Assembly (NCBI RefSeq): GCF_053078305.1
Contig: NZ_CP166879.1
Strand: one strand, 5' to 3'
Length of the DNA stretch: 64,000 nt
In this document: piece after piece, positions 17,607 through 30,420 of the stretch
Layout of the letters: each line of letters starts with the position of its first letter
How positions within the stretch are numbered: the first letter of the stretch is position 1
The notes under the pieces: generated by a model
What the model was told of the DNA's origin: nothing
The model's database searches: none
What the model saw: the letters and a program-made list of their open reading frames with translations, nothing else
Program-made: the position numbers and the translations under genes

Positions 17607-18594
17607 AATAATGCCAGGGCAAGATTACGAAAGCCTTCTCCCCGCAAGGACTGACGCCAGGTAGTTTCTGTCCATGGCTGCTTTTCGCATCTTACGTCTT
17701 AACCCTGCCTTGAATACCTTATCATTCGTCAAAATATTAATAGCAATGTGCCGTATCCCTGAAAATAATTCTGCTGCATTTCCTCTTCTTATTTTGCAGT
17801 CGTCTTCATTCATTACCACGTCCAGACGCCAGTGCAGCTTATTCTCCACGTGCCAGTGGTTTCGGATTGCTGTGGCGAACTTCTCTGCGGTTAAATCAGC
17901 AGAACTGATATAATATCTGACCGTCATTTCTGGCTCTTTCTTTTGTTCTGCTATTATTGAGCGAAATGAGACTGCCATGCATAATTTCTTCAGCCCTTTC
18001 CATTCAAACGTGAAATCAATAAGTTCATCAGGGATATCGCAGACAATATGGAGACGGATTTTAATGACATGAATCGCTCCCCTGCGGCGACTCTTGTCAT
18101 AAGAGTGCCGGAGCGTTTTTCCATCAATTGCAATGACGTCTTTATCATCTGAAGAATGGCAGTCACGCATCCAGTTAATAAAGCACTCGTGAAATTTTGC
18201 AGGACTGATACAGGATACAACTCTGGCAATGGTATCGTGAACAGGAATACCATTTTCAAAATCACCATATTGCTTCAAAAAATCGAGATGTGTTTCCCCA
18301 AAATCCTCTATATCTTCCCAACCTTCTGCACCAGAAACAACGGCACAAATAATCAACAGTAGAATATCCGATAATTTATGTTCCACTTTCCAGGCTTGTC
18401 TGTAATCGGGGATAATAGAAATATGTTCCATCAATTTTTTAAGTTCCATTTTGTTTCCTTAATTATGTAAGGAGTATTTGATCATGTATAAGCAATAAAA
18501 AACAGCTTTAGGTAATGAGGAACATATCAATTTTTAAACATAAAATGCGAATTATTTAGTACAAAAAGTGTACTTCCGATGATCTTTCCCTGCC
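17607..18594 (-). mobile_element. H-repeat (ISAs1-family) element, copy A, with internally deleted transposase
   Basis: Ends defined by where similarity to copy B (24395–25377) and to the remnant at 30421–30577 starts and stops. Confidence 0.6.
17625..18449 (-). CDS. H-repeat-associated protein / ISAs1-family transposase with an in-frame internal deletion (274 aa instead of about 378 aa)
   Basis: [32 protein letters not shown] ... matches the H-rpt protein (YdcC-like); about 100 central residues are missing between ...AIHVIK and IRLHIVCD... Confidence 0.8.
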
Positions 18595-18862
18595 ATTAAA
18601 TAATGTCTTATTTGACCTTGCCAACATACAACAAAATAATTGAAATATATTCAAAATTAATTTAAACATTCATCAGGCGTCCTTTTCTAAAAAACCTAAT
18701 CATTTAATGGTTAAATTACAATCAAACAAACAAAGTAAACTGGAATTATAGTTGTGGTGCACTTCACGATTTTAGCATTCTTGCTCCTACATTTATACTC
18801 TCTGCCGCGGAAATTTGTTCTCGAAACTTAACTAAACCCAATCAATCATCCTTGCCTTATCG

Positions 18863-19366
18863 TTACTTGAATTTATCAAGACATTTATCATTGCTGACAC
18901 TTTCAATATTTATATGATATACAGTTCCTGTGTTTGAGATATATACTTCCTTAAGCTTATCAGTTTTACTCTCATTATTATAAAAGTAGCCCCCGATAAT
19001 TTTATTCTTCTTTGATATATAAGTGACAGTGTCAGTATGAACTCCACCATTTATTGTCATAATGAATGAGGCATCCAAGTTCATCGTACTTTCCCCCTTA
19101 AAATATATTTTACCATTAGAAATCACTTTGGTCTCAGAAACACCGTTAGGCTCGTCATTACTAATTAATATAAGTAAATCTACCATTTCGGATTTTTTAT
19201 CTCTTTCTTTATAACCACCAATATCATCCAGGATATTATTTGACACTTTTCCACAAAGCATCACTGAGTAATTATTCAAATTTTTGAGTTGAGAGCACTT
19301 TGCCACAAAAGAGAATGAAATAAATATCAAACCTACCGAAATGATTATTGTTTTTTTAAAATTCAT
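18863..19366 (-). CDS. Putative immunity protein for the upstream effector; secreted/periplasmic (signal peptide)
   Basis: 167 aa, hydrophobic N-terminal signal sequence, AT-rich; starts 4 nt after the effector stop. Confidence 0.55.
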   Translation of the reverse strand: MNFKKTIIISVGLIFISFSFVAKCSQLKNLNNYSVMLCGKVSNNILDDIGGYKERDKKSEMVDLLILISNDEPNGVSETKVISNGKIYFKGESTMNLDASFIMTINGGVHTDTVTYISKKNKIIGGYFYNNESKTDKLKEVYISNTGTVYHINIESVSNDKCLDKFK

Positions 19367-19370
19367 TGTT

Positions 19371-21449
19371 TTAAAGAATCCTTATGTAATTAAGTGGAGG
19401 TGTTATTTCATCATTCAATACATACCAAGAATGCTCAAATGCTGGCCAACGCACTAAATCGAAGCCATCTGCTGCTGGGTTTATTCGCCGTGTAACTTCT
19501 CTGGCATCTGACAAACTACATCCTTTATCCGCCCAATAATTAACGCCTAAACTACCACTAGGTGTCAATCGATGGCTTACCATTATGTATTTTTGCTTAC
19601 TTGCCCAAAAGTATCCCCCGGCATCGCAAGAAAAATAGGCATTTTCAACTGGGAGTTGGTTATTGGGTTCTGTAGTAAAAAAATCATCATCTGACGGATT
19701 TCTATACTTTCCATAATTTCTATAATTCTCACGACCAGTTAGATGTATGGTACCTCTGCCTTTAAATCTTGCACCATCACCAACAACATTATTTCCAAGC
19801 TTAAGTCCCTGTTCTGTTCCTGGCTCATACATATCAAAATAACTCGAATCACCATTCTCTATAAAAGACGCAAATCTGCCTGTTTCTCTCGCCATCTGAC
19901 CGAAATAATGCGCAATCCGCAATGGGGTTGTAATTAAGTACTTCCTTAGTGACTTTGACAGTTCATTTTTCAACCCTGCAGGTCTTATCACCTCACCACT
20001 GCTATTTTGTCCTTGGCTAGTAATCCGCTCAATTAGAGTGTCTTTACTTAATGGTCTTGTAAGTTCTGATGTCATGGGATAAGCATTTTGATAACGTCTT
20101 ACCACACTTATAATATCATTTTCTCCTAACCACCCACATTTCCTGAAATGTGCAATAAACTGCCTGGGATCAAAATGCCATACACGCCTGGCAGGTAACG
20201 GATTATCTACCAAACAAAGCGCCTTACAGTGTTCTATCAGCAAATCCAGGTCAGGCTCTGTCATCGGCTTACTCAATACGTCATTGGGTGATTTCAGCCA
20301 CTCAAACCGTGATTCCACGGTGGCGCTGTCCCATTCTAGCGGAAAATGACAAATCATCCGACTTAGGTCATTGCGGGTTGTACACAGGATTGTTGGTGAA
20401 TTGCACTGGCTGTTGGTGTCCGCATCATCGTTCACCAGTTTCCACCCTGTCCAGTGTGGAAAATCACCGTCGCTGTAAACCCTGATATCTCTCGCCCCTA
20501 AGTTAACAACGCCTTTACCCTGTGGCGTATTGATTGTTCGCCACAGCGGCGCATCCGCCGGGACTAATTCTTCATATTCTGTATTAACAACCCGACCAAA
20601 ACGCAGCATCTCATAACCGGCACTTGGGCTTTTCGGATAGAGTTGCAGCGCGTAGGAATAGAGATTGTATTCATAATCCTTACCATCAGCATTAATCAAG
20701 GGAGAACCTACTTCAGTATAGGTATCACTCAGCACTTCATGCTGCTGACGCGTCACCATCGTACAATTGCCTTTATCAAAACTCATTGTGACATACAATG
20801 GCACGCTGGTTCTTTGTACCGGACTGTTGTTCGCAAGCGAGTTTTCTTCCGGCATGTCCCCATAAATCGGTGTTCCGGCAGGGAGATAAAAATGACTATC
20901 ACCGTAAACCACATCAGTTCGTCCATCTTTATTCAGGTCTGTTTCCGGTGATATTCTTCCTGTGATTTTCTGAATGTTTTCATCATCACAAAAAATCTGA
21001 AAATGAAAGGCGTTCTGTCCGTCCACCATCCCTGCTGCACCAACCGGTTCTTTCCGGTATAGCGTGTTTCCCGGCTGCACATTACTGTCAATGCTTCTCA
21101 GGTGCATATATAATGAGTAATAGACGATTTTACCCTCTTCTCCACTACCGATTTCTGTTTCATGTTTTATCAGAACATAGCCTTTATCCGTAACTCCGTT
21201 ATAATTTAACGGAGGAACTGTATTTTCCGCTGGTTCTGGCTGGCGTATTGAAATAACCTTCCCATCGGCAATACACCTAACAGTCTCTGACAGATTGCCG
21301 TTCAAATGAACTCCACCATGCCAAGAACGACCGCTATTCATTGGGAAATTTCTTTCTGGATCAACAGACATCATTCTGTTTACCCAGTCAGAGTCTTTTT
21401 CAGTGTCTATATGCGCATGCAATATTGGAGGGCTGATTATCATTATCAA
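19371..21449 (-). CDS. Putative T6SS cargo effector, 692 aa: N-terminal LytM/M23-like domain and C-terminal GH19/lysozyme-like domain (peptidoglycan hydrolase candidate)
   Basis: N-terminal motifs WHGGVHL ... GYVLIKHE ... YYSLYMHL resemble degenerate M23 motifs; C-terminal FKGRGTIHLTGRENYRNYGKY and GGYFWAS resemble GH19 signatures; immediately downstream of vgrG. Confidence 0.6.
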   Translation of the reverse strand: MIMIISPPILHAHIDTEKDSDWVNRMMSVDPERNFPMNSGRSWHGGVHLNGNLSETVRCIADGKVISIRQPEPAENTVPPLNYNGVTDKGYVLIKHETEIGSGEEGKIVYYSLYMHLRSIDSNVQPGNTLYRKEPVGAAGMVDGQNAFHFQIFCDDENIQKITGRISPETDLNKDGRTDVVYGDSHFYLPAGTPIYGDMPEENSLANNSPVQRTSVPLYVTMSFDKGNCTMVTRQQHEVLSDTYTEVGSPLINADGKDYEYNLYSYALQLYPKSPSAGYEMLRFGRVVNTEYEELVPADAPLWRTINTPQGKGVVNLGARDIRVYSDGDFPHWTGWKLVNDDADTNSQCNSPTILCTTRNDLSRMICHFPLEWDSATVESRFEWLKSPNDVLSKPMTEPDLDLLIEHCKALCLVDNPLPARRVWHFDPRQFIAHFRKCGWLGENDIISVVRRYQNAYPMTSELTRPLSKDTLIERITSQGQNSSGEVIRPAGLKNELSKSLRKYLITTPLRIAHYFGQMARETGRFASFIENGDSSYFDMYEPGTEQGLKLGNNVVGDGARFKGRGTIHLTGRENYRNYGKYRNPSDDDFFTTEPNNQLPVENAYFSCDAGGYFWASKQKYIMVSHRLTPSGSLGVNYWADKGCSLSDAREVTRRINPAADGFDLVRWPAFEHSWYVLNDEITPPLNYIRIL

Positions 21450-21590
21450 TAGTCCTTATTAAGCTTATAAAACATGTAACGAGTATGAATTATTCATTCA
21501 CAGAGCATCTCTGCTTAGAAAGCAGAAAATCACAGTATTATTGTATTATTACTACCGTCATCCGTTATCTTTATCTGAATGATTATCCCA

Positions 21591-23737
21591 CTACGAGAAC
21601 ATGAACTTCACTCTGGTCTCATCATTACCGATATCATCATCAGTATTACTATCCGTATCATTAGTGACTAAAGTGTTCAGGACAGTGGGTTGCAGTGTCG
21701 GTACCGGTGTCCCCGGACTCCCCCCACCATTAAGATTTATCTTCGGCCCCACTATATCCACGCCGCCCGGCTGAATAACGATAAACGAGCCACCCACCTT
21801 CAGGCTTATCCGGCTGCTGCTCTCCAGCACGATATCCCCGTCCACCTTTATCCCCAGCGCGCCACTCACCTTCCTCGCCAGGTCCCCCTTCACCACCAGG
21901 CTGTGTTTCCCCTCCACCAGACTGATATGGTTCCCCGTCGTCTTATGCTCCTGCTTCCCTTCCACCGTCACTTTACGGTCGTTTCTGACGTACAGACCGT
22001 CATCGTGACTCACGCTCACCGTCCGGTCATTCGTCACCTTCAGAGTCTGGTCATTACGTACTGTGATACGCCGGTCGTTCGCCACCGTGATACTCTGGTC
22101 GTGGCCCCCTCTTTTTTTGTACCGACCTGAACCGTCTGGCCCTTCACCACCGTTATCTTCTGGTCGTTACCAATGGTTTCCGTGTGGTCATGCTTCACGT
22201 CCGTCGTCCGGTCGTTGAGCACTTCCGTATCCATGTTCTTCTGCGCATGGATATACACCTGCTCATTACTGGTGGCGTCTTCAAACCGCAGCTCGTTAAA
22301 TCCGCTTCCTTTATAGGTTTTTGACCGGATGGTCATCTGCGTCTTCGTTCCCGGCAGGTCGCCCGGCGAACGGTTGTCCTCATGGTACGTCCGCCCCATG
22401 ATTATCGGCTGGTCCGGGTCGCCGTTCAGGAAGTCCACTATCACCTCCTGACCCACCCGCGGTATCGCCAGATTACCGAACCCCGGCCCCGCCCACGCCT
22501 GCGATACACGCACCCAGCATGAACTCGCCTCCGTCATCCCGTGATAACGGTCCCAGTGGAACTTCACCCGTACCCGGCCATGTTCATCGCAGAAGATTTC
22601 CTCTCCCGCAGGCCCGGTGACAATGGTGCTCTGTGGCCCGTCCACCTTCGGTTTGCTTTGCAGCCGTGGACGCCACGTCCGGTCTGCCGGTATCACCTCT
22701 AACTGATTTCCCAGTGTGGTTCCTCTCCCCTGGCTGCCGTGCAACGCCTGCGGCTGGCTTCCTGACAGTATGCTCTGTACCACCTGCCATTCACGGTTCA
22801 GCATCTTCTGCGGATGCCCCGTCAGCGTAAACCGCGTTCCCGGCCACAGCTTCGGTGAATTACTCTGCCCTGTGGCCTTTTCCGCATCACTGCGCAGGCT
22901 GTCCATCTGATACAGCGTGAAATCCTTGCCGTGCTGCTCATCCTTGAACCTTCCCGGATAATCAAATATCTCGTACTGCGCGTGCTGTCCGTTCAGCCTC
23001 TCACCCTGCTGTTCGTATATCCCCGGCCAGTCCGGCACCTTAAACGTGTAATCCTGACTCTGCACCGACGACGGGCGGACATGCGCCTCATAACGGAACA
23101 TACTGAGACACTCCGTCTCCGCTCCTGCCGATGTGTCCGGGTTAAACGGAAGCTCTCCCGCCTGTGACAGCCCCGCCACATCGTCGCACAGCGTCAGCTT
23201 CTGCTCCGGGCTGTCCGCCGCAAACCGCTCAAAGAAGAAAATCCCCTCCTCCGCCCACAGCCGGGACAGAAACGCCAGGTCGCTCTCTCCGTACTGGACA
23301 CAGAACTCCCGCGCCGGATGGTCCTCATAAAACAGCGGCGTCCACTCCGTGACGCCGTTCTCGTTCAGTAACGTGGCCGATATCGTCCGGATATCCTGCT
23401 GCTGAAAAATACGAAAGTTCTGCCGCAGCCCGCACCGCCATAACGGCGGCTCAATACGCAGGTGATAACGCATCTGCCAGCCGTTGTTCTCCTGCATGCC
23501 AAAGCCCGCCACCACGCCAGTGACATAACGCAGCGGAATGACGCCCTGCCAGATGGTCAGCGTTGCGTTCTTCTCCAGCAGCATCTCCGCCGTCTGCATA
23601 AAAGAGTCGCTGGCAACATCCACACTCATCACAAACGGATAAGACTGGTTCTGGATTAACCTGAAATTCACCACTGCAAAGGTGTCCGGCTCCTGGCCGT
23701 CAACCTCCAGCGTAAAGCGAAGACCTTTTAAGGACAT
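21591..23737 (-). pseudogene. vgrG: vgrG (T6SS spike protein), copy A, disrupted by a 1-nt deletion in a homopolymer (C5 on + strand at 22105–22109); ORFs 22040..23737 and 21591..22085 are one gene
   Basis: Conserved VgrG motifs LRFTLEVDG, GLRQNFRIFQ, GPQS.IVTGPAGEEIFCDEHGRVRVKFHWDRY, NLAIPRVGQEVIVDFLNGDPDQPIIMGRTYH; reading through the G-run restores ...KKEGGHDQSITVANDRRITV... as in copy B. Confidence 0.8.
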
Positions 23738-24180
23738 AAATACCTCTCTGGTATATCAGCCTATATTTACCGTGCCGCCACCAATAACCACGCCGCCGCA
23801 GTCAATGGCATCACCGGTTCTGGCGGCGGGCAGGCCGTCAATAAAGACGGTTGAAGAGCCTCTGGCGATTTTTCGGGGATGAGGTGGATGCTTCGGTTTA
23901 GCATGCGGCGTCGGCGGATCTCCCTGACGGGCTGCGGGGAGACCATCGATAAAAACGGTGGATGACCCGGCGGTGATGACGGTCTCGTAATAACCGTCGT
24001 GCTGAGTGCCTTTGTCGGTGAGTTTGGCTGCTAAAGGCATAATTCCTCCTGTTCAGAATTTCTACAGCAGCAGGTTTCAAAAATCCGGAGAAATATTCAA
24101 CGAAACATTAATCACTTCACCGGATATTCTGACACGTACCTTCACTAGTCTATTTAAGTAATACAAATTGTTGGCGTGTA
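22128..24180 (-). repeat. Duplicated PAAR–vgrG 5' segment, copy A (paralogous to 28368–30420, high but not perfect identity)
   Basis: Near-identical nucleotide stretches including the leader upstream of PAAR (taattcctcctgtt(c/a)agaatttctacagcagcaggtttcaaaaatccggag...). Confidence 0.85.
23756..24040 (-). CDS. PAAR-repeat protein (T6SS spike tip), 94 aa
   Basis: Two GLPAAR(Q/T)GD motifs; directly upstream of vgrG. Confidence 0.8.
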   Translation of the reverse strand: MPLAAKLTDKGTQHDGYYETVITAGSSTVFIDGLPAARQGDPPTPHAKPKHPPHPRKIARGSSTVFIDGLPAARTGDAIDCGGVVIGGGTVNIG

Positions 24181-24394: not shown

Positions 24395-25377
24395 GCAGGG
24401 CAAGATTACGAAAACCCGCTCCCCGCAAGGACTGACGTCAGGTAGTTTCTGTCCATGGCTGCTTTTCGCATCTTACGTCTTAACCCTGCCCTGGATACCT
24501 TATCATTCATCAAAATATTAATAGCAATGTGCCGTATCCCTGAAAATAATTCTGCTGCGTTTCCTCTTCTTATTTTGCAGTCGTCTTCATTCATTACCAC
24601 GCCCAGACGCCAGTGCAGCTTATTCTCCACGTACCAGTGGTTTCGGATTGCTGTGGCGAACTTCTCTGCGGTTAAATCAGCAGAACTGATATAATATCTG
24701 ACCGTCATTTTGGGATTTTTCTTTTGTTCTGCTATTATTGAGCGAAATGAGACTGCCATGCATAATTTCTTCAGCCCTTTCCATTCAAACGTGAAATCAA
24801 TAAGTTCATCAGGGATATCGCAGACAATATGGAGACGGATTTTAATGACATGAATCACTCCCCTGCGGCGACTCTTGTCATAAGAGTGCCGGAGCGTTTT
24901 TCCATCAATTGCAATGACGTCTTTATCATCTGAAGAATGGCAGTCACGCATCCAGTTAATAAAGCACTCGTGAAATTTTGCAGGACTGATACAGGATACA
25001 ACACTGGCAATGATATCGTGAACAGGAATACCATTTTCAAAATCACCATATCACTTCAAAACATCGGGATGTGTTTCCCCAAAATCCTCTATATCTCCCA
25101 GTCTTATGCACCAGAAATAACGGCGCAAATAGTTAACAGATAGAATATCTGGCAATTTATGTTCCACTTTCCAGGCTTGCCTGTAATCGGGGATAACAGA
25201 AATATGTTCCATCAATTTTTTAAGTTCCATTTTGTTCTCCTTAATTATGTAAGGGGTATTTGATCATGTGTAAGCAATAAAAAACAGCTTCAGGCAATAA
25301 GGAATATCTCAATTTTCAAACATAAAATGTGAATTATTTAGTACAAAAAGTGTACTTCTGATGATCTTTCCCTGCCC
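24395..25377 (-). mobile_element. H-repeat (ISAs1-family) element, copy B, degraded
   Basis: Homologous to copy A over its whole length, with the same internal deletion plus extra substitutions and indels. Confidence 0.6.
24406..25231 (-). pseudogene. H-repeat/ISAs1-family transposase pseudogene (frameshifted N-terminal region; same internal deletion as copy A)
   Basis: ORF 24406..24951 encodes the C-terminal part ([20 protein letters not shown]...); the N-terminal [11 protein letters not shown]... lies in other frames near 25231. Confidence 0.7.
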
Positions 25378-25453: not shown

Positions 25454-25933
25454 TTAAAGATTGCCATCTTCATTGCCGACGAAATAAATATCAAATGAAC
25501 ACTCCAATCCAAGATTAGCCATTATTTTCATCTGCTCAGGCCATAAAGTTGGCCCACCGTGCCAATTCAATGATCTCCAGGTACAGTCAATACCCATTGA
25601 AATATTTTCTAATGCTTGCAATTTTGCAATATTTGATGATTTAGGTCCAAGTTTGTGAAGTAGCCAATCCAGATGTTCTCGAATATCTTTCGAGTTCACT
25701 AGATTTTCTGACGAGAGCATCCAATATGAATTTTTTGCATATCTTTTCTTTCCCGATAGAGTAATAATTTCATCTCCTTTTATATTAATTGATGTTGGCT
25801 CAAGTTCTAAGTGAATACTTATTTCATTAGGGTGAGTATTACCTGTGTAAATCAAGAGGCTAGCATAGCACTCATCACAACTTGGATATTCATGAGATAT
25901 CGGGGTAAGCCTTGATTGTATATTCTTAATCAT
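25454..25933 (-). CDS. Putative immunity protein for effector B; cytoplasmic, 159 aa
   Basis: No signal peptide; start overlaps the effector stop (translational coupling); AT-rich. Confidence 0.5.
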   Translation of the reverse strand: MIKNIQSRLTPISHEYPSCDECYASLLIYTGNTHPNEISIHLELEPTSINIKGDEIITLSGKKRYAKNSYWMLSSENLVNSKDIREHLDWLLHKLGPKSSNIAKLQALENISMGIDCTWRSLNWHGGPTLWPEQMKIMANLGLECSFDIYFVGNEDGNL

Positions 25934-27063
25934 AAATAATCCTCTATGTTTCCTAAAATATTTCCTGAGTCATCAATATAATCACCATTATCAAGTATTC
26001 GACCATGGTGATCACCTCGTAAGCGTAAATCTTTTTTCAACTTTTCTAAAGCTTTCCCCCATTCTCTCCTGTTAATATTTTTACCAAAAAATTCATTTAA
26101 CTCCCTGGCAGTTCTTGCCTCAAGAGTATTACCTCCAGTTTGTAATACTCTCGGAACTCTTCCCGCAGCGCCAACGCTTGGAGGAACAGGAATAGGCAAT
26201 CCATTTGCATCCAGCACAATTTTAGCACCGCTCCTCCCCATTCTGCCAACCGATTTTATTGCAAACTTCGCTGAAAACTTGACCAAACCTTTCACCAGTG
26301 CTCCAACCCCGGTCATAAGTTCCAGCCATGGCTCAACCTCCATCGCCATTGCTTGGGTTTCATTGGCAGGTTTCAACAATGGCTCTCTAGGATCAATAGT
26401 TTCCATTACCTCCCTGTTGGTCTCATTCGCCCGCTCCATAATTTGGGTATCCATCCCCAACCCTCTCGCCAGAGCAATATTACTTTCCATTTGGGCAATG
26501 TCATTTTGCATCTGACCTTTGGCAATCAATGCACCCAACATATACCAGCCATTAATAAATGCCTTGCCTAATCCTATCATTGCATCTGCTTCTTGCTTTT
26601 TGGACTCAAGCTCAAACTCTTGCTGTTGTCTTTGCAGTTCCAGATACCTGGCCCAAAGCGATGATTCTTTAACAGGTATTATCTGATTTGGCAGGTTTGT
26701 CTGGGTATACAGTTTTCCAACAGTATTATCATTATTCATGGCAACCAGCGAAAGATTCCTGGCTACCGGCTTTCCCTTGCACTTTATATGATCCACGCCT
26801 GTCAGTATCCGGCAGTCACCGCTGCCCAGACTGGTGCCAGAACTGACACCTTTCCCGGCATTACTTCGTGTACCTGCAATAATACAGTCCACGGTCAGTA
26901 CTGGATTGCCCCGTGCCCTGACATTGCTGATATAAATTTTCTCATGTGTCAGGTCCTGAAAGCTGTCAAACGGCACTATCGCATCACCAACCTTGCAGAC
27001 ATCAGGCGCAATACATATCGCAACGTACTTCGATTCACGACAACCAATATGATTTTCAGCCAT
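25930..27063 (-). CDS. Putative T6SS effector, 377 aa: N-terminal PAAR-like (DUF4150-type) domain fused to a C-terminal toxin domain of unassigned family
   Basis: N-terminus ...YVAICIAPDVCKVGDAIVPF... resembles the PAAR-like DUF4150 signature; downstream of vgrG and an adaptor-like gene, followed by an overlapping small ORF. Confidence 0.55.
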   Translation of the reverse strand: MAENHIGCRESKYVAICIAPDVCKVGDAIVPFDSFQDLTHEKIYISNVRARGNPVLTVDCIIAGTRSNAGKGVSSGTSLGSGDCRILTGVDHIKCKGKPVARNLSLVAMNNDNTVGKLYTQTNLPNQIIPVKESSLWARYLELQRQQQEFELESKKQEADAMIGLGKAFINGWYMLGALIAKGQMQNDIAQMESNIALARGLGMDTQIMERANETNREVMETIDPREPLLKPANETQAMAMEVEPWLELMTGVGALVKGLVKFSAKFAIKSVGRMGRSGAKIVLDANGLPIPVPPSVGAAGRVPRVLQTGGNTLEARTARELNEFFGKNINRREWGKALEKLKKDLRLRGDHHGRILDNGDYIDDSGNILGNIEDYL

Positions 27064-27997
27064 GAGGTCCCCTCTGCTCCGTCGTCAAAACAATACGTTG
27101 TGGAAGAGAATCCACGGGGAGCGTTAAGCGCCAGAGTAGTGTTAGTTGCTCATCGTCTGTGTGGATGGTCAGTGTGTCAGCCAACAATGGGCGCAGTTCT
27201 ACGTTTTTATCAGAGCGGTAAAACAAATACGCCAATAGTCTAATATCTGGAAGGAAACAAATTTGTTCCATTTTAGAAGGTAATAGGCCGTTCAATATAA
27301 TTTTTTCATTGCCAATTAAATAACCATCGTATTGTTGTTCTGGTGGAGAATAATTCATGAATGCAAAATCGAATTCATCTGGATAAAAAGGTTGAACAGT
27401 CTTTTGCCACTGTTCTGTAAAACCTCTGGCATAGCGCAATCGTGAAGGCCAGCTACGGCAAATAGCTCCTGGTGAGGCAGATAACTGTGGAGCTGGACAG
27501 GGCGATTTATCGCCAAGCGTTATCAGGGAGGGAATAACAATGCCTACAGGATTAAATTCACTGGCTGACGCCAGTTCATGGCGTAACAGTACCCGATCAG
27601 TTAATTCAGGTTCGCTAAGTTGCCAGCGGTTAGATATATATTGCCATTGGCAAGGGCCACATATATCAAATTGGCGCTGAAGATTACCAACCTGTAAACT
27701 GGCCTGCCATCGAGTGGTTTCCCCGGTGGCATGCCATGCGTGTCCATTTAATAAAACATCTGCCCTGACTTTTCTGCAAACCAAATCGGTTGCTGTTTTA
27801 AGACTGCTGCTTTCCGGTTCGCCGTACCAGGAGTCGGTCATCAGTGGCAGTCGCTGCTCATCCGCAATCAGACAGAGACCGCCGCTATATGAAAAATCAA
27901 ATGTCTGATTAACTACCACTACTGTGAATAACTCACCATAATATCCCACTTTTTCGAACTGAAAGTGAGGTAAACCAGTTTCATTTTCAATATTCAT
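27056..27997 (-). CDS. Putative T6SS effector adaptor/chaperone (DUF2169- or DUF4123-like by position), 313 aa
   Basis: Lies between vgrG and the PAAR-like effector; overlaps the effector start by 8 nt; no recognisable catalytic motif. Confidence 0.4.
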   Translation of the reverse strand: MNIENETGLPHFQFEKVGYYGELFTVVVVNQTFDFSYSGGLCLIADEQRLPLMTDSWYGEPESSSLKTATDLVCRKVRADVLLNGHAWHATGETTRWQASLQVGNLQRQFDICGPCQWQYISNRWQLSEPELTDRVLLRHELASASEFNPVGIVIPSLITLGDKSPCPAPQLSASPGAICRSWPSRLRYARGFTEQWQKTVQPFYPDEFDFAFMNYSPPEQQYDGYLIGNEKIILNGLLPSKMEQICFLPDIRLLAYLFYRSDKNVELRPLLADTLTIHTDDEQLTLLWRLTLPVDSLPQRIVLTTEQRGPHG

Positions 27998-28012
27998 GTT
28001 AATTTCTCCAGA

Positions 28013-29977
28013 TTAATCCAGATCAATATCTGCGCCGAAAATATTGATTTTATCTTTTCCTTCAATCTGGATACTTTTACCATTGAGAATGATAGTACCG
28101 TCCTTATTCATTTTCAGTAAGCATTCACCGACTTTAATGGTGAGGCTGTTGGTAACTGTCAGGCTGTAATCTTCTCCAACTTTAATATCCTGGGATTTCA
28201 CGACTTCTTCGGTATCTTTTCCTATTATCTTACTGATTTGATCGTTCCCTACATCCTTGTGACGATCGTGGGTAACATCCAGCCGCTGATCGTTTTGTAC
28301 CGTAATGGTCTGGTCATTCGCCACTGTCACTTTCTGGTCATGACCACCTTCCTTTTTGCTCCCCACATTCACCGTCTGGCCCTTCACCACCGTTATCTTC
28401 TGGTCGTTACCAATGGTTTCCGTGTGGTCATGCTTCACGTCCGTCGTCCGGTCATTCAGCACTTCCGTATCCATGTTCTTCTGCGCGTGAATATAGACCT
28501 GTTCCTTATCTGTGGCGTCCTCAAAGCGCAGCTCGTTAAATCCGCTTCCTTTATAGGTCTTCGACCGGATGGTCATTTGTGTCTTCGTTCCCGGCAGGTC
28601 GCCCGGCGAACGGTTGTCTTCATGGTATGTGCGTCCCGTCACAATGGGCTGGTCCGGGTCGCCGTTCAGAAAGTCCACTATCACCTCCTGACCCACACGC
28701 GGTATCGCCAGATTACCGAACCCCGGCCCCGCCCACGCCTGCGATACACGCACCCAGCATGAACTCGCCTCCGTCATCCCGTGATAACGGTCCCAGTGGA
28801 ACTTCACCCGTACCCGGCCATGTTCATCGCAGAAGATTTCCTCTCCCGCAGGCCCGGTGACAATGGCGCTCTGTGGCCCGTCCACCTTCGGTTTGCTTTG
28901 CAGCCGTGGACGCCACGTCCGGTCTGCCGGTATCACCTCTAACTGATTTCCCAGCGTGGTTCCTCTCCCCTGGCTGCCGTGCAGCGCCTGCGGCTGGCTT
29001 CCTGACAGTATGCTCTGTACCACCTGCCATTCACGGTTCAGCATCTTCTGCGGATGCCCCGTCAGCGTAAACCGCGTTCCCGGCCACAGCTTCGGTGAAT
29101 TACTCTGCCCTGTGGCCTTTTCCGCATCACTGCGCAGGCTCTCCATCTGGTACAGCGTGAAATCCTTGCCGTGCTGCTCGTCCTTGAACCTTCCCGGATA
29201 ATCAAATATCTCGTACTGCTCCAGCTGTCCGTTCAGGTTCTCACCCTGCTGCTCATACATCCCCGGCCAGTCCGGCACCTTAAACGTGTAATCCTGGCTC
29301 TGCACCGACGACGGGCGGACATGCGCCTCATAACGGAACATACTGACACACTCCGTCTCCGCTCCTGCCGATGTATCCGGGTTAAACGGAAGCTCCCCCG
29401 CCTGTGACAGCCCCGCCACATCGTCGCACAGCGTCAGCTTCTGCTCCGGGCTGTCCGCCGCAAACCGCTCAAAGAAGAAAATTCCCTCCTCCGCCCACAG
29501 CCGCGCCAGAAACGCCAGGTCCGACTCCCCGTACTGCACACAGAACTCCCGCGCCGGATGGTCCTCATAATACAGCGGCGTCCACTCCGTGACGCCGTTC
29601 TCGTTCAGTAACGTGGCCGATATCGTCCGGATATCCTGCTGCTGGAAGATACGGAAGTTCTGCCGCAGCCCGCACCGCCATAACGGCGGCTCAATACGCA
29701 GGTGATAACGCATCTGCCAGCCGTTATTCTCCTGCATGCCAAAGCCCGCCACCACGCCGGTGACATAACGCAGCGGGATGACGCCCTGCCAGATGGTCAG
29801 CGTCGCCTTCTTCTCCAGCAGCATCTCCGCCGTCTGCATAAAAGAGTCGCTGGCAACATCCACACTCATCACAAACGGATATGACTGGTTCTGGATTAAC
29901 CTGAAATTCACCACTGCAAAGGTGTCCGGCTCCTGGCCGTCAACCTCCAGCGTAAAGCGCAGACCTTTTAAGGACAT
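28013..29977 (-). CDS. vgrG: VgrG (T6SS spike protein), copy B, intact, 654 aa, with a C-terminal tail distinct from copy A
   Basis: Same conserved VgrG motifs as copy A; C-terminus ...KVGEDYSLTVTNSLTIKVGECLLKMNKDGTIILNGKSIQIEGKDKINIFGADIDLD differs from copy A. Confidence 0.88.
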   Translation of the reverse strand: MSLKGLRFTLEVDGQEPDTFAVVNFRLIQNQSYPFVMSVDVASDSFMQTAEMLLEKKATLTIWQGVIPLRYVTGVVAGFGMQENNGWQMRYHLRIEPPLWRCGLRQNFRIFQQQDIRTISATLLNENGVTEWTPLYYEDHPAREFCVQYGESDLAFLARLWAEEGIFFFERFAADSPEQKLTLCDDVAGLSQAGELPFNPDTSAGAETECVSMFRYEAHVRPSSVQSQDYTFKVPDWPGMYEQQGENLNGQLEQYEIFDYPGRFKDEQHGKDFTLYQMESLRSDAEKATGQSNSPKLWPGTRFTLTGHPQKMLNREWQVVQSILSGSQPQALHGSQGRGTTLGNQLEVIPADRTWRPRLQSKPKVDGPQSAIVTGPAGEEIFCDEHGRVRVKFHWDRYHGMTEASSCWVRVSQAWAGPGFGNLAIPRVGQEVIVDFLNGDPDQPIVTGRTYHEDNRSPGDLPGTKTQMTIRSKTYKGSGFNELRFEDATDKEQVYIHAQKNMDTEVLNDRTTDVKHDHTETIGNDQKITVVKGQTVNVGSKKEGGHDQKVTVANDQTITVQNDQRLDVTHDRHKDVGNDQISKIIGKDTEEVVKSQDIKVGEDYSLTVTNSLTIKVGECLLKMNKDGTIILNGKSIQIEGKDKINIFGADIDLD

Positions 29978-30420
29978 AAATACCTCTCAGACATATCAGC
30001 CTATATTTACCGTACCGCCACCAATGACCACACCACCACAGTCGATGGCATCACCGGTTCTGGCGGCGGGCAGGCCGTCAATAAAGACGGTTGACGAGCC
30101 TCTGGCGATTTTACGGGGATGAGGGGGATGCTTCGGTTTAGCATGCGGCGTCAGCGGATCTCCCTGGCGGGCTGCGGGGAGACCATCGATAAAAACGGTG
30201 GATGACCCGGCGGTGATGACGGTCTCGTAATAACCGTCGTGCTGGGTGCCTTTGTCGGTGAGTTTGGCTGCTAAAGGCATAATTCCTCCTGTTAAGAATT
30301 TCTACAGCAGCAGGTTTCAAAAATCCGGAGAAATATTCAACGAAATATTAATCACTTCACCGGATATTCTGATACGTACCTTCACTGGTCTATTTAAGTA
30401 ATACAAATTGTTGGCGTGTA
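28368..30420 (-). repeat. Duplicated PAAR–vgrG 5' segment, copy B
   Basis: Paralogous to 22128–24180. Confidence 0.85.
29996..30280 (-). CDS. PAAR-repeat protein, copy B, 94 aa
   Basis: Near-identical to 23756..24040; two PAAR motifs. Confidence 0.8.
   Translation of the reverse strand: MPLAAKLTDKGTQHDGYYETVITAGSSTVFIDGLPAARQGDPLTPHAKPKHPPHPRKIARGSSTVFIDGLPAARTGDAIDCGGVVIGGGTVNIG

Follow-up and report, generated by a model that had tools for sequence, protein, structure and literature searches.

The 64,000-nucleotide stretch of Escherichia coli DNA analyzed here (contig NZ_CP166879.1 of RefSeq assembly GCF_053078305.1, hereafter the window) carries a gene for a two-domain protein with a gene for a small secreted protein directly behind it. 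The larger product is very probably a cargo toxin, or effector, of a type VI secretion system (T6SS), built like TseP of Aeromonas and the subclass I WHIX proteins: a muramidase of family GH19 that would be loaded onto a VgrG spike by an N-terminal carrier module and that is accompanied by an immunity gene. The features on which this reading draws are given below, in coordinates of the window.

18863..19366, minus strand: candidate immunity gene, 167 amino acids (aa), WP_001009642.1
19295..19366, minus strand: signal-peptide-like N-terminus of the candidate immunity protein (MNFKKTIIISVGLIFISFSFVAKC), from a heuristic scan
19371..21449, minus strand: effector open reading frame (ORF) at maximal length, 692 aa from a TTG, from the ORF list
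19371..21443, minus strand: effector gene at its likely start, 690 aa plus stop, ATG at 21443, WP_000587243.1
19374..19961, minus strand: GH19 endolysin-type muramidase domain (aa 495-690), the predicted toxic domain
20109..21443, minus strand: WHIX-like/TseP-N-like N-terminal module (aa 1-445), from hhalign and BLASTP
20979..21353, minus strand: M23/LytM-fold core (aa 31-155) with invariant H42, H46, H94, H114, and H147
21306..21323, minus strand: WHxxxH motif (W41-H42-G-G-V-H46), read from the sequence
21591..23737, minus strand: vgrG-A, the cognate spike gene, frameshifted, leaving two ORFs (565 aa and 164 aa); 'frameshifted' in RefSeq
21594..21672, minus strand: proposed docking tail of VgrG-A, its last ~26 codons (…NDTDSNTDDDIGNDETRVKFMFS), cassette-specific by homology break and GC content
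22105..22109, minus strand: homopolymer of five Gs, the site of the vgrG-A frameshift, from strain comparison
23756..24040, minus strand: PAAR protein of module A, 94 aa, RefSeq 'type VI secretion system PAAR protein'

Gene order and the T6SS setting

Both the effector and the 167-aa gene are genuine at these coordinates. An earlier note on this DNA, made from its letters alone, had described a 692-aa ORF overlapped by a downstream ORF with a signal peptide. The longer ORF is present if read from the TTG, but translation more likely begins at the ATG at 21443, for a product of 690 aa: RefSeq has the same start and the first 23 residues are conserved in homologs; AAGGA lies 9 nt upstream of it. 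The downstream product does have a Sec-type N-terminus by heuristic criteria, but the genes do not overlap: the effector stop (19371-19373) and the ATG of the small gene (19366) are separated by 4 nt. The order within what can be called module A is PAAR, vgrG-A, effector, and the small signal-peptide ORF, followed by a further ISAs1 copy. This order and the GH19 domain support the view, already taken in that note, that the effector stands directly downstream of vgrG as a peptidoglycan-targeting T6SS cargo. The order of spike, effector, and small signal-peptide gene recurs in six other loci, i.e., in Buttiauxella, Chromobacterium violaceum, Salmonella, Yersinia (twice), and ST131-type E. coli, with the Salmonella copy lying inside the main T6SS cluster. 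Queried with positions 18400-22200 of the window (3.8 kb), four assemblies match at 100% identity, E. coli PS10-3 among them. About 1.4 Mb from the locus, PS10-3 carries a T6SS core cluster (tssA, B, C, E, F, G, H, J, K, L, and M, with hcp and vgrG), in which 12 core genes are annotated with zero pseudogene flags.

The predicted C-terminal toxin domain

The AlphaFold2 (AF2) model of the effector has a predicted local distance difference test score (pLDDT) of 92.6 and a predicted template modeling score of 0.92. Residues ~495-690 resemble GH19-type endolysins in phmmer searches (9MS7, E 7e-10; 9HNV and 9HQW, ~1e-5; the SPN1S endolysin 4OK7 and the TseP C-domain 8XCL, each 8e-4). E520 and E529 line up with the catalytic glutamates of the endolysins, E520 being invariant in 119 homologs and E529 and T569 present in every homolog that aligns at those positions. 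T569 lies within the GRGxxHLTG motif, and FKGRGTIHLTGRENYRNYGKY is located at aa 560-580. The nine-residue spacing between the two glutamates is that of loopless GH19 endolysins. The domain thus has the GH19 fold, the two catalytic glutamates, and the threonine for the nucleophilic water that together define an endolysin-type GH19 enzyme, so that a GH19/lysozyme-like C-terminus, as proposed earlier, is borne out with its catalytic residues intact. From this fold and these residues, it is presumably a catalytically competent muramidase of the lysozyme type. The GH19 phage endolysins (PWe2, 9MS7; SPN1S, 4OK7; and the Pseudomonas aeruginosa enzyme 9EOI) have in common with it the fold, the Glu…Glu pair nine residues apart, and the GRGxxQLTG motif that holds the catalytic-water threonine. 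Unlike these enzymes, which are released by holins from the inside, the effector would arrive from outside via the T6SS, and its GH19 domain is fused to a 490-aa carrier and paired with a candidate immunity protein.

An M23-like core in the N-terminal module

The N-terminal region is matched by the Pfam M23 profile PF01551 weakly (E 3.3e-4, aa 42-155), and Foldseek relates its core to LytM and lysostaphin at E values of 1e-5 to 1e-4. A hidden Markov model profile of the core gave no significant match to PDB M23 chains (E about 0.3), and these chains were not significantly reached with either the single sequence or the profile, DARPins scoring higher by chance. The M23 resemblance, which the earlier note had read from the motifs, is genuine yet remote. 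That note had also considered that profile or structure searches might place the two domains in unrelated non-hydrolase families; the searches instead gave an M23-like fold and GH19 endolysins.

In the effector, WHGGVHL occupies aa 41-47, and the HxxxD of M23 corresponds to H42-x-x-x-H46, with His for Asp. YMHL (aa 112-115, with H114) is the regular 'YxHL' catalytic-His motif of M23, and the HxH position is A145-F-H147 (AFHFQ). In all 117 aligned homologs, E, A, or G stands in place of the first His of HxH, and the second His is invariant. WHGGVHL does therefore stand in place of HxxxD, as had been claimed, but YMHL is no degenerate stand-in for HxH. The fold is present and the HxxxD/HxH motifs of a competent enzyme are absent, HxxxH and [E/A/G]xH being found instead; the effector should not be classed with the ordinary M23 metallopeptidases, whatever its RefSeq name, 'M23 family metallopeptidase' (WP_000587243.1).

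With the M23/LytM peptidases (LytM, lysostaphin) and the noncatalytic LytM domains (EnvC, NlpD, SpoIIQ, DipM) the core shares the first-metal-ligand His, the YxHL His, and the second His of HxH. It differs from them in lacking the Asp of HxxxD, where it has His, and the first His of HxH; in its marginal sequence similarity (Pfam E 3e-4, with the profile against PDB M23 chains not significant); and in sitting within a ~445-aa module that has ~290 further residues without a structural match.

The relationship to WHIX and TseP

The WHIX domain (Fridman et al. 2025, PMC12135965) takes its name from the WHxxxH motif, and experiments have shown that it attaches effectors to a spike protein by the C-terminal tail of the latter. 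The domain by itself suffices for secretion, which depends on the final 14 residues of VgrG4; in the published model, WHIX caps the last 11-14 (PMC12135965). The domain was defined as bipartite, with conserved regions at aa 31-126 and 271-476 of the archetype; its commonest cargo is a GH19/chitinase-like toxin (2,242 of 4,434 proteins); TseP is cited among the WHIX proteins; and WHIX itself is not described there as an M23 fold (PMC12135965). The WHGGVH of the effector is this WHxxxH, and the earlier suggestion that the N-terminal domain binds rather than catalyzes fits that evidence.

Within the effector family, W41 and H42 are found in 116/116 aligned homologs and H46 in 116/117 (one Leu), and WHxxxH is present in 139 of 150 family representatives. 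The archetype is Vibrio alginolyticus WP_005373349.1, its sequence being taken from the supplementary model file of the paper, and its W41-H42-S-G-I-H46 aligns with W41-H42-G-G-V-H46 of the effector. BLASTP joins effector aa 33-115 to archetype aa 33-120 (E 7e-8) in an alignment that spans WHxGxHL, DGKxxxxR, vLIxHE, and fYxLYMHL. A profile-profile comparison of the effector family with the Vibrio WHIX family gives a probability of 99.75% at full length, and hhalign of the N-terminal modules alone gives 98.9% (E 3.3e-16). In the archetype, an insertion of ~145 residues, missing from the effector family, separates YMHL from the H-x-E strand. With this insertion excised, the effector core aligns end to end (E 1.3e-17), H147 falling opposite H300 (NRVHIEMF), which suggests that the published bipartite motif may be an M23-like core split by an insertion and contiguous in the effector family. 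The end of archetype region 2 (ICHFPxEW…, …WHFxP) is aligned by hhalign at 98.9% probability; there is hence homology to both conserved archetype regions, the stretch at aa ~160-360 being aligned with low confidence. The genome is T6SS-positive, judged by PS10-3, the spike gene is adjacent, and a signal-peptide gene stands alongside.

As in WHIX subclass I, WHxxxH lies near the N-terminus, the C-terminal toxin is GH19/chitinase-like, a signal-peptide protein follows, and the adjacent spike gene encodes a similar tail (…FSD vs …FS), the difference being that the Vibrio archetype is preceded by a PAAR-like protein and the effector by VgrG. The subclass II 'double-blade' arrangement, with a canonical M23 toxin before WHIX as in Awe1 or WP_069143508, was rejected: those N-terminal extensions have a true HxxxD/HxH and a separate downstream WHxxxH, while in the effector the M23-like core and the WHxxxH region are one, the length of the protein would not accommodate both, and an upstream immunity gene is missing.

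TseP of Aeromonas dhakensis SSU is an amidase-lysozyme chimeric T6SS effector with the immunity protein TsiP and a C-domain structure in PDB 8XCL (PMC11893102). Its N-domain was reported to be a Zn-dependent amidase, dependent on H19, H23, H109, and H339 (also H359 and E539), was superposed on 3SLU, an M23 protein, binds VgrG2, and is needed for the T6SS to assemble (PMC11893102). When the two N-domains are set side by side by reported residue positions, H19, H23, and H109 match effector H42, H46, and H114 in position and spacing; H339 would correspond to H147 since TseP carries an insertion between H109 and H339, and no effector equivalents of H359 and E539 were assigned. Both proteins have the WHxxxH…YxHL…H set of histidines, a gene directly behind that of the carrier VgrG, a single downstream immunity protein (a candidate, for the effector), and an N-domain of higher GC content than the C-domain. 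They differ in that H109 and H339 of TseP are ~230 residues apart, with the lysozyme catalytic Glu at 663, whereas H114 to H147 is contiguous in the effector and its module measures ~445 aa. The GC content falls stepwise along 18863-23737 (shared part of vgrG, 0.58; N-module, 0.45; GH19 domain, 0.39; immunity gene, 0.30; intergenic DNA, 0.30), and the drop from the N-module to the GH19 domain recalls the difference reported between the N- and C-domains of tseP (PMC11893102). A parallel may also be struck with Tse4 of Acinetobacter baumannii (lytic transglycosylase plus endopeptidase), which likewise has two peptidoglycan-directed domains and a single immunity protein; its domain families are unrelated to those of the effector, and neither is reported to have a loading role.

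A shared spike tail

The cognate spikes of the family are of differing type (Gp5_trimer_C, DUF2345) and alike at the C-terminus:

E. coli (window): …RVKFMFS (VgrG-A, …ETRVKFMFS)
Buttiauxella: …PVRFVFS
Salmonella: …PLKFLFS
Yersinia: …IKRWLFS and …QKYPFS
ST131-type E. coli: …PVKFFFS
C. violaceum: …THPFSE
Vibrio and Aliivibrio, PAAR-like spikes upstream of WHIX archetypes: …DDNFSD and …DDIFSD

All seven spikes (some of them fragments) that precede family members have [KR][FWY]xFS or PFSE at the end, and five control spikes with other cargo have unrelated ends. Homology to E. coli strains with other cargo (an M35 peptidase) at the same locus ends at 21673, 26 codons before the vgrG stop, and the tail segment of vgrG-A has a GC content of 0.37 vs 0.58 in the remainder of the gene. 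Twenty-one genomes contain the 82-nt tail-encoding DNA, each in a single copy: 19 with the effector plus AST215 and LR778147. AST215 is a deletion remnant, a 108-aa VgrG remnant alone being left between ISAs1 copies, and LR778147 is likewise by its annotation. The tail segment is thus confined to effector carriers or deletion remnants, and tail and effector are therefore inherited as one cassette. Such co-inheritance is as predicted by the published WHIX-VgrG4 tail model (PMC12135965), and we infer that the WHIX-like module loads the effector onto the tail of VgrG-A.

The candidate immunity gene

The N-terminus of the 167-aa protein has a net charge of +2 followed by a 16-residue hydrophobic stretch (Kyte-Doolittle value 2.84), and Sec-like N-termini are found in 7/7 positional equivalents (this locus and the six others), most of which are unrelated in sequence. 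It has zero matches in Pfam, NCBIfam, and PADLOC, which on the two proteins together gave nothing except the weak M23 match of the effector. C38 and C162 are kept in its full-length homologs, consistent with a periplasmic disulfide. A lipoprotein reading was discarded, VAKC being no lipobox and the Salmonella homolog lacking the Cys. The Buttiauxella equivalent is 28% identical (E 3e-16), and there the GH19 domains are closest (69%); at the remaining compared loci the small-gene products are unrelated in sequence to the 167-aa protein. This pattern suggests that the immunity candidate co-varies with the toxin domain, and the 167-aa protein is a candidate periplasmic immunity protein on these sequence features.

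The full-length immunity gene is present in 33 of 5,426 complete E. coli genomes, 14 of which lack the effector but keep a 78-codon remnant of it beside the immunity gene, the effector occurring in 19 of the same set. In E. coli PM06121 (L005, 3465-4206; window 18062-19604), an intact immunity gene (95% aa identity) lies behind the last 78 codons of the effector, downstream of a newer cassette at the same chromosomal site made up of an M35 peptidase and two hypothetical genes, an arrangement that resembles the orphan immunity genes of Rhs and contact-dependent inhibition (CDI) loci. A further 119 genomes, CFT073, Nissle 1917, and ATCC 25922 among them, retain only a 163-bp immunity scar (codons ~3-56), which is annotated in places (P0308) as a 231-aa chimeric ORF running into a second protein with its own signal peptide and looks like a recombination remnant of cassette replacement.

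Family and distribution

A search with the N-module (aa 1-445) gathers 629 cluster representatives at 50% identity with E<1e-3 and 252 with E<1e-30, nearly all matching from residue 1 of proteins of 650-900 aa. Foldseek against AFDB50 gives 827 matches, with full-length superpositions (template modeling scores 0.8-0.96) in Enterobacterales, Neisseriales, Burkholderiales, Pseudomonas, and Acinetobacter. The median identity among homologs is 55% in the N-module vs 36% in the GH19 part, and mosaics are seen, e.g., a Salmonella protein (P0048) with an N-module 72% identical and a C-domain 33%, and a Chromobacterium protein (P0078) with 46% and 56%, respectively. A GH19 C-terminus is recognizable in 99 of the 127 full-length representatives, and about 13 have other C-termini. 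The family follows the polymorphic-toxin pattern of a variable toxin on a conserved carrier. Among the non-GH19 C-termini (P0419, P0363, P0424, P0437), one has an HEFGH zinc-protease motif and three have an unrecognized TAASQVERL domain in common. In public databases, many members of the family go under 'hydroxyethylthiazole kinase', 'kinase', or 'putative membrane protein', names that appear to be a propagated misannotation.

Several loci show further arrangements. In the Yersinia pseudotuberculosis complex (L012, 2637-11346), two effector-immunity pairs stand in tandem, the second preceded by an 86-aa DUF2345 fragment ending …QKYPFS; in Enterobacter bugandensis (L011, 1292-7576), two effectors stand in tandem, each followed by one or two small signal-peptide genes. 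Canonical WHIX effectors are catalogued in E. coli as well: WP_061356769.1, of 899 aa, lies between a DUF2345-type VgrG and a 284-aa signal-peptide protein adjacent to tssH. In ST131-type E. coli (L013), a 787-aa member of the effector family with a 285-aa downstream gene sits in what is apparently the same slot, and canonical WHIX effectors and the effector family may replace each other at this one E. coli locus.

No experimental work was found in the literature on the E. coli effector or its immediate family; the family lies outside the scope of both the E. coli T6SS survey and the T6EC study, and identity with the T6EC1-4 effectors (Geller et al.) was excluded. The earlier note had not recognized the domain combination as that of a characterized E. 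coli effector, which holds for E. coli; the architecture as such was already described in 2025, in Aeromonas TseP (PMC11893102) and WHIX subclass I, though not in E. coli.

The locus and its second cargo module

The locus is a variable E. coli island between pptA/ISAs1 and yncG with two tandem T6SS cargo modules. Upstream of module A, and separated from it by a degraded ISAs1 copy (24406-24951), lies an apparently intact second module on the minus strand (module B, 25454-30280):

25454-25933, minus strand: DUF4279 protein
25930-27063, minus strand: PAAR-like-domain protein (PAAR-like effector), 377 aa
27056-27997, minus strand: DUF2169 adaptor
28013-29977, minus strand: VgrG-B
29996-30280, minus strand: PAAR-B

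The PAAR proteins of the two modules are 1 aa apart, and VgrG-A and VgrG-B are near-identical up to about residue 560. Promoter and terminator scans at the locus gave scores no better than those of shuffled sequence.

State of the module

The window, PS10-3, and ES5 read AAAAAAAGAGGGGGCC, with five Gs after a run of seven As (22105-22109), which breaks the frame of vgrG-A. JX21CE8 and A30 have six Gs, restoring the frame (...KKEGGHDQSITVAND...), and vgrG-A is intact in JX21CE8, at 715 aa (WP_104773313.1). The genome has no second copy of the tail. The A30 vgrG is truncated N-terminally, and the ES5 effector is annotated as frameshifted; in JX21CE8 and two related strains, the sole lineage seen in this state, the PAAR, VgrG, and effector genes are all intact. 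In JX21CE8 (L003, 3288-4451), IS1 lies at the 3′ end of the immunity gene, shortening its product to 151 aa with loss of the conserved C162. The difference between five and six Gs could be a real inactivation, a reversible slippage, or a homopolymer assembly error. The module may be decaying, and delivery of the effector in this strain is doubtful because the cognate vgrG is frameshifted (five Gs instead of six).

Weighing the readings

Several observations weigh against the reading of the pair as a spike-loaded muramidase with its immunity gene. All of its support is computational. The middle of the effector module (aa 160-360) aligns poorly with the WHIX archetype, and nine accessions of the family (WP_000587243, ST131-type WP_048974097, and C. 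violaceum CV_0024 included) are all absent from the uncut tree of the WHIX paper, of about 4,400 leaves. That tree file has at least 4,366 leaves for a published set of 4,434 proteins, collected by RPS-BLAST at E ≤ 1e-6 and ≥ 70% coverage. Some of the nine may postdate the August 2023 database used; WP_000587243, WP_011133579, WP_021475349, WP_048974097, and WP_083021406 appear, by their low numbers, to be older than it. From this absence, the effector family evidently falls below the published cut-offs and therefore outside the published definition. The tail motif comes from nine positive and five control sequences chosen to no formal design. A frameshift breaks the cognate vgrG in this strain as in several other carriers, and in some carriers the effector is annotated as frameshifted. 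The 167-aa protein is without a canonical (-3,-1) cleavage site right after its hydrophobic stretch, its homologs are few (about nine clusters, in E. coli, Pseudocitrobacter, and Salmonella), and its AF2 model has a pLDDT of 33.

It is conceivable, though we would not bet on it, that the protein is a true double-enzyme toxin, the reading nearest to the heading of the earlier note. The N-domain would then work as a Zn-dependent peptidoglycan amidase or endopeptidase with a material share in killing, as claimed for TseP, and loading would be secondary or absent. In a motif-level alignment, His, His for Asp, and His, respectively, fall at the three positions where LytM holds its metal. The invariant H42, H46, H114, and H147 are the equivalents of TseP-N positions whose mutation cut amidase activity, five invariant histidines are hard to account for structurally alone, and TsiP inhibits both domains of TseP as a single immunity protein (PMC11893102). 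Against this stand the first position of HxH, which is never His in 117 homologs (E, A, or G), and the lack of assigned equivalents of TseP H359 and E539. Further, the WHIX domain of Awe1 alone is non-toxic in the E. coli periplasm (PMC12135965), and mutating only the lysozyme domain abolishes TseP toxicity (PMC11893102). By contrast, it is highly improbable that the protein is a lysin of phage or tailocin origin, at work inside the cell at lysis, rather than a T6SS effector. Some homologs carry the name 'Pyocin R, lytic enzyme', phage GH19 endolysins are the closest solved structures for the C-domain, and M23 domains are known in phage lysins (6YJ1, 3CSQ); but phage genes are absent nearby, a VgrG or PAAR-like spike gene directly precedes the family gene in every locus examined, and the effector has no signal peptide or holin partner and is followed by a small secreted protein typical of immunity genes.

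A separate question is whether the locus is a decaying relic in this genome, with its only cognate spike broken and selection acting mainly on the immunity gene, against neighbors that fire the toxin. This has an appreciable chance of being right, if one short of even. The vgrG-A frameshift is common to the window, PS10-3, and ES5, the tail-encoding DNA is single in each genome, the A30 vgrG and the ES5 effector are damaged as described, and ISAs1 copies flank the module on both sides; the 14 genomes with the immunity gene alone and the 119 with only its scar point the same way. Yet four independent assemblies have an identical, uninterrupted effector ORF, PAAR, VgrG, and effector are intact in JX21CE8 and its two relatives, and a single-base G5/G6 difference after A7 is a classic assembly error and could also be a reversible slippage.

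A proposed mode of action and its significance

If the pair is a TseP-like, spike-loaded muramidase with its immunity gene, the ~445-residue WHIX-like module, with its M23/LytM-fold core (WHxxxH…YMHL…HFQ), would grip the tail of VgrG-A (…ETRVKFMFS), and the T6SS encoded elsewhere in the genome would fire the loaded spike into a neighboring Gram-negative cell. There the GH19-type muramidase would cut the glycan strands of peptidoglycan in the periplasm, to which the N-module may add a weak Zn-dependent amidase activity, as reported for TseP-N. The 167-aa protein would be exported via its Sec signal and would neutralize the toxin in sibling cells. If the frameshift is real and not bypassed, the effector would probably be undeliverable, and the locus would be kept mainly for its immunity gene.

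What is new here is a compact, uninterrupted M23-like carrier that the published WHIX search missed, the spike-tail motif, and the cassette of tail and effector. The known picture of T6SS biology is unchanged. Nevertheless, a misannotated family of 629 representatives, the effector of the ST131-type T6SS-1 locus included, gains a concrete and testable role, and the WHIX/TseP class is extended to proteins missed by the published search. Two 2025 papers are thereby linked, in which one domain is called a loading domain on one hand and a Zn amidase on the other, the M23 fold being suggested as the reason. The …xFS spike tail and the tail-effector cassette provide a handle to predict which VgrG carries which toxin, and the orphan immunity copies mark E. 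coli lineages that are probably protected against it.

A more speculative proposal, which we regard as rather unlikely, is that the compact family reveals WHIX to be an M23/LytM peptidase whose substrate groove and metal site now serve to hold the free C-terminal peptide of the spike (…[KR]-aromatic-x-F-S-COOH); the metal of the histidine cluster would then bind the tail rather than cleave peptidoglycan, and the bipartite WHIX would be the same fold split. Were this true, the pairing of spike and effector in a large class of T6SS toxins, the ST131-type included, would become readable from a heptapeptide tail and could be re-engineered through it.

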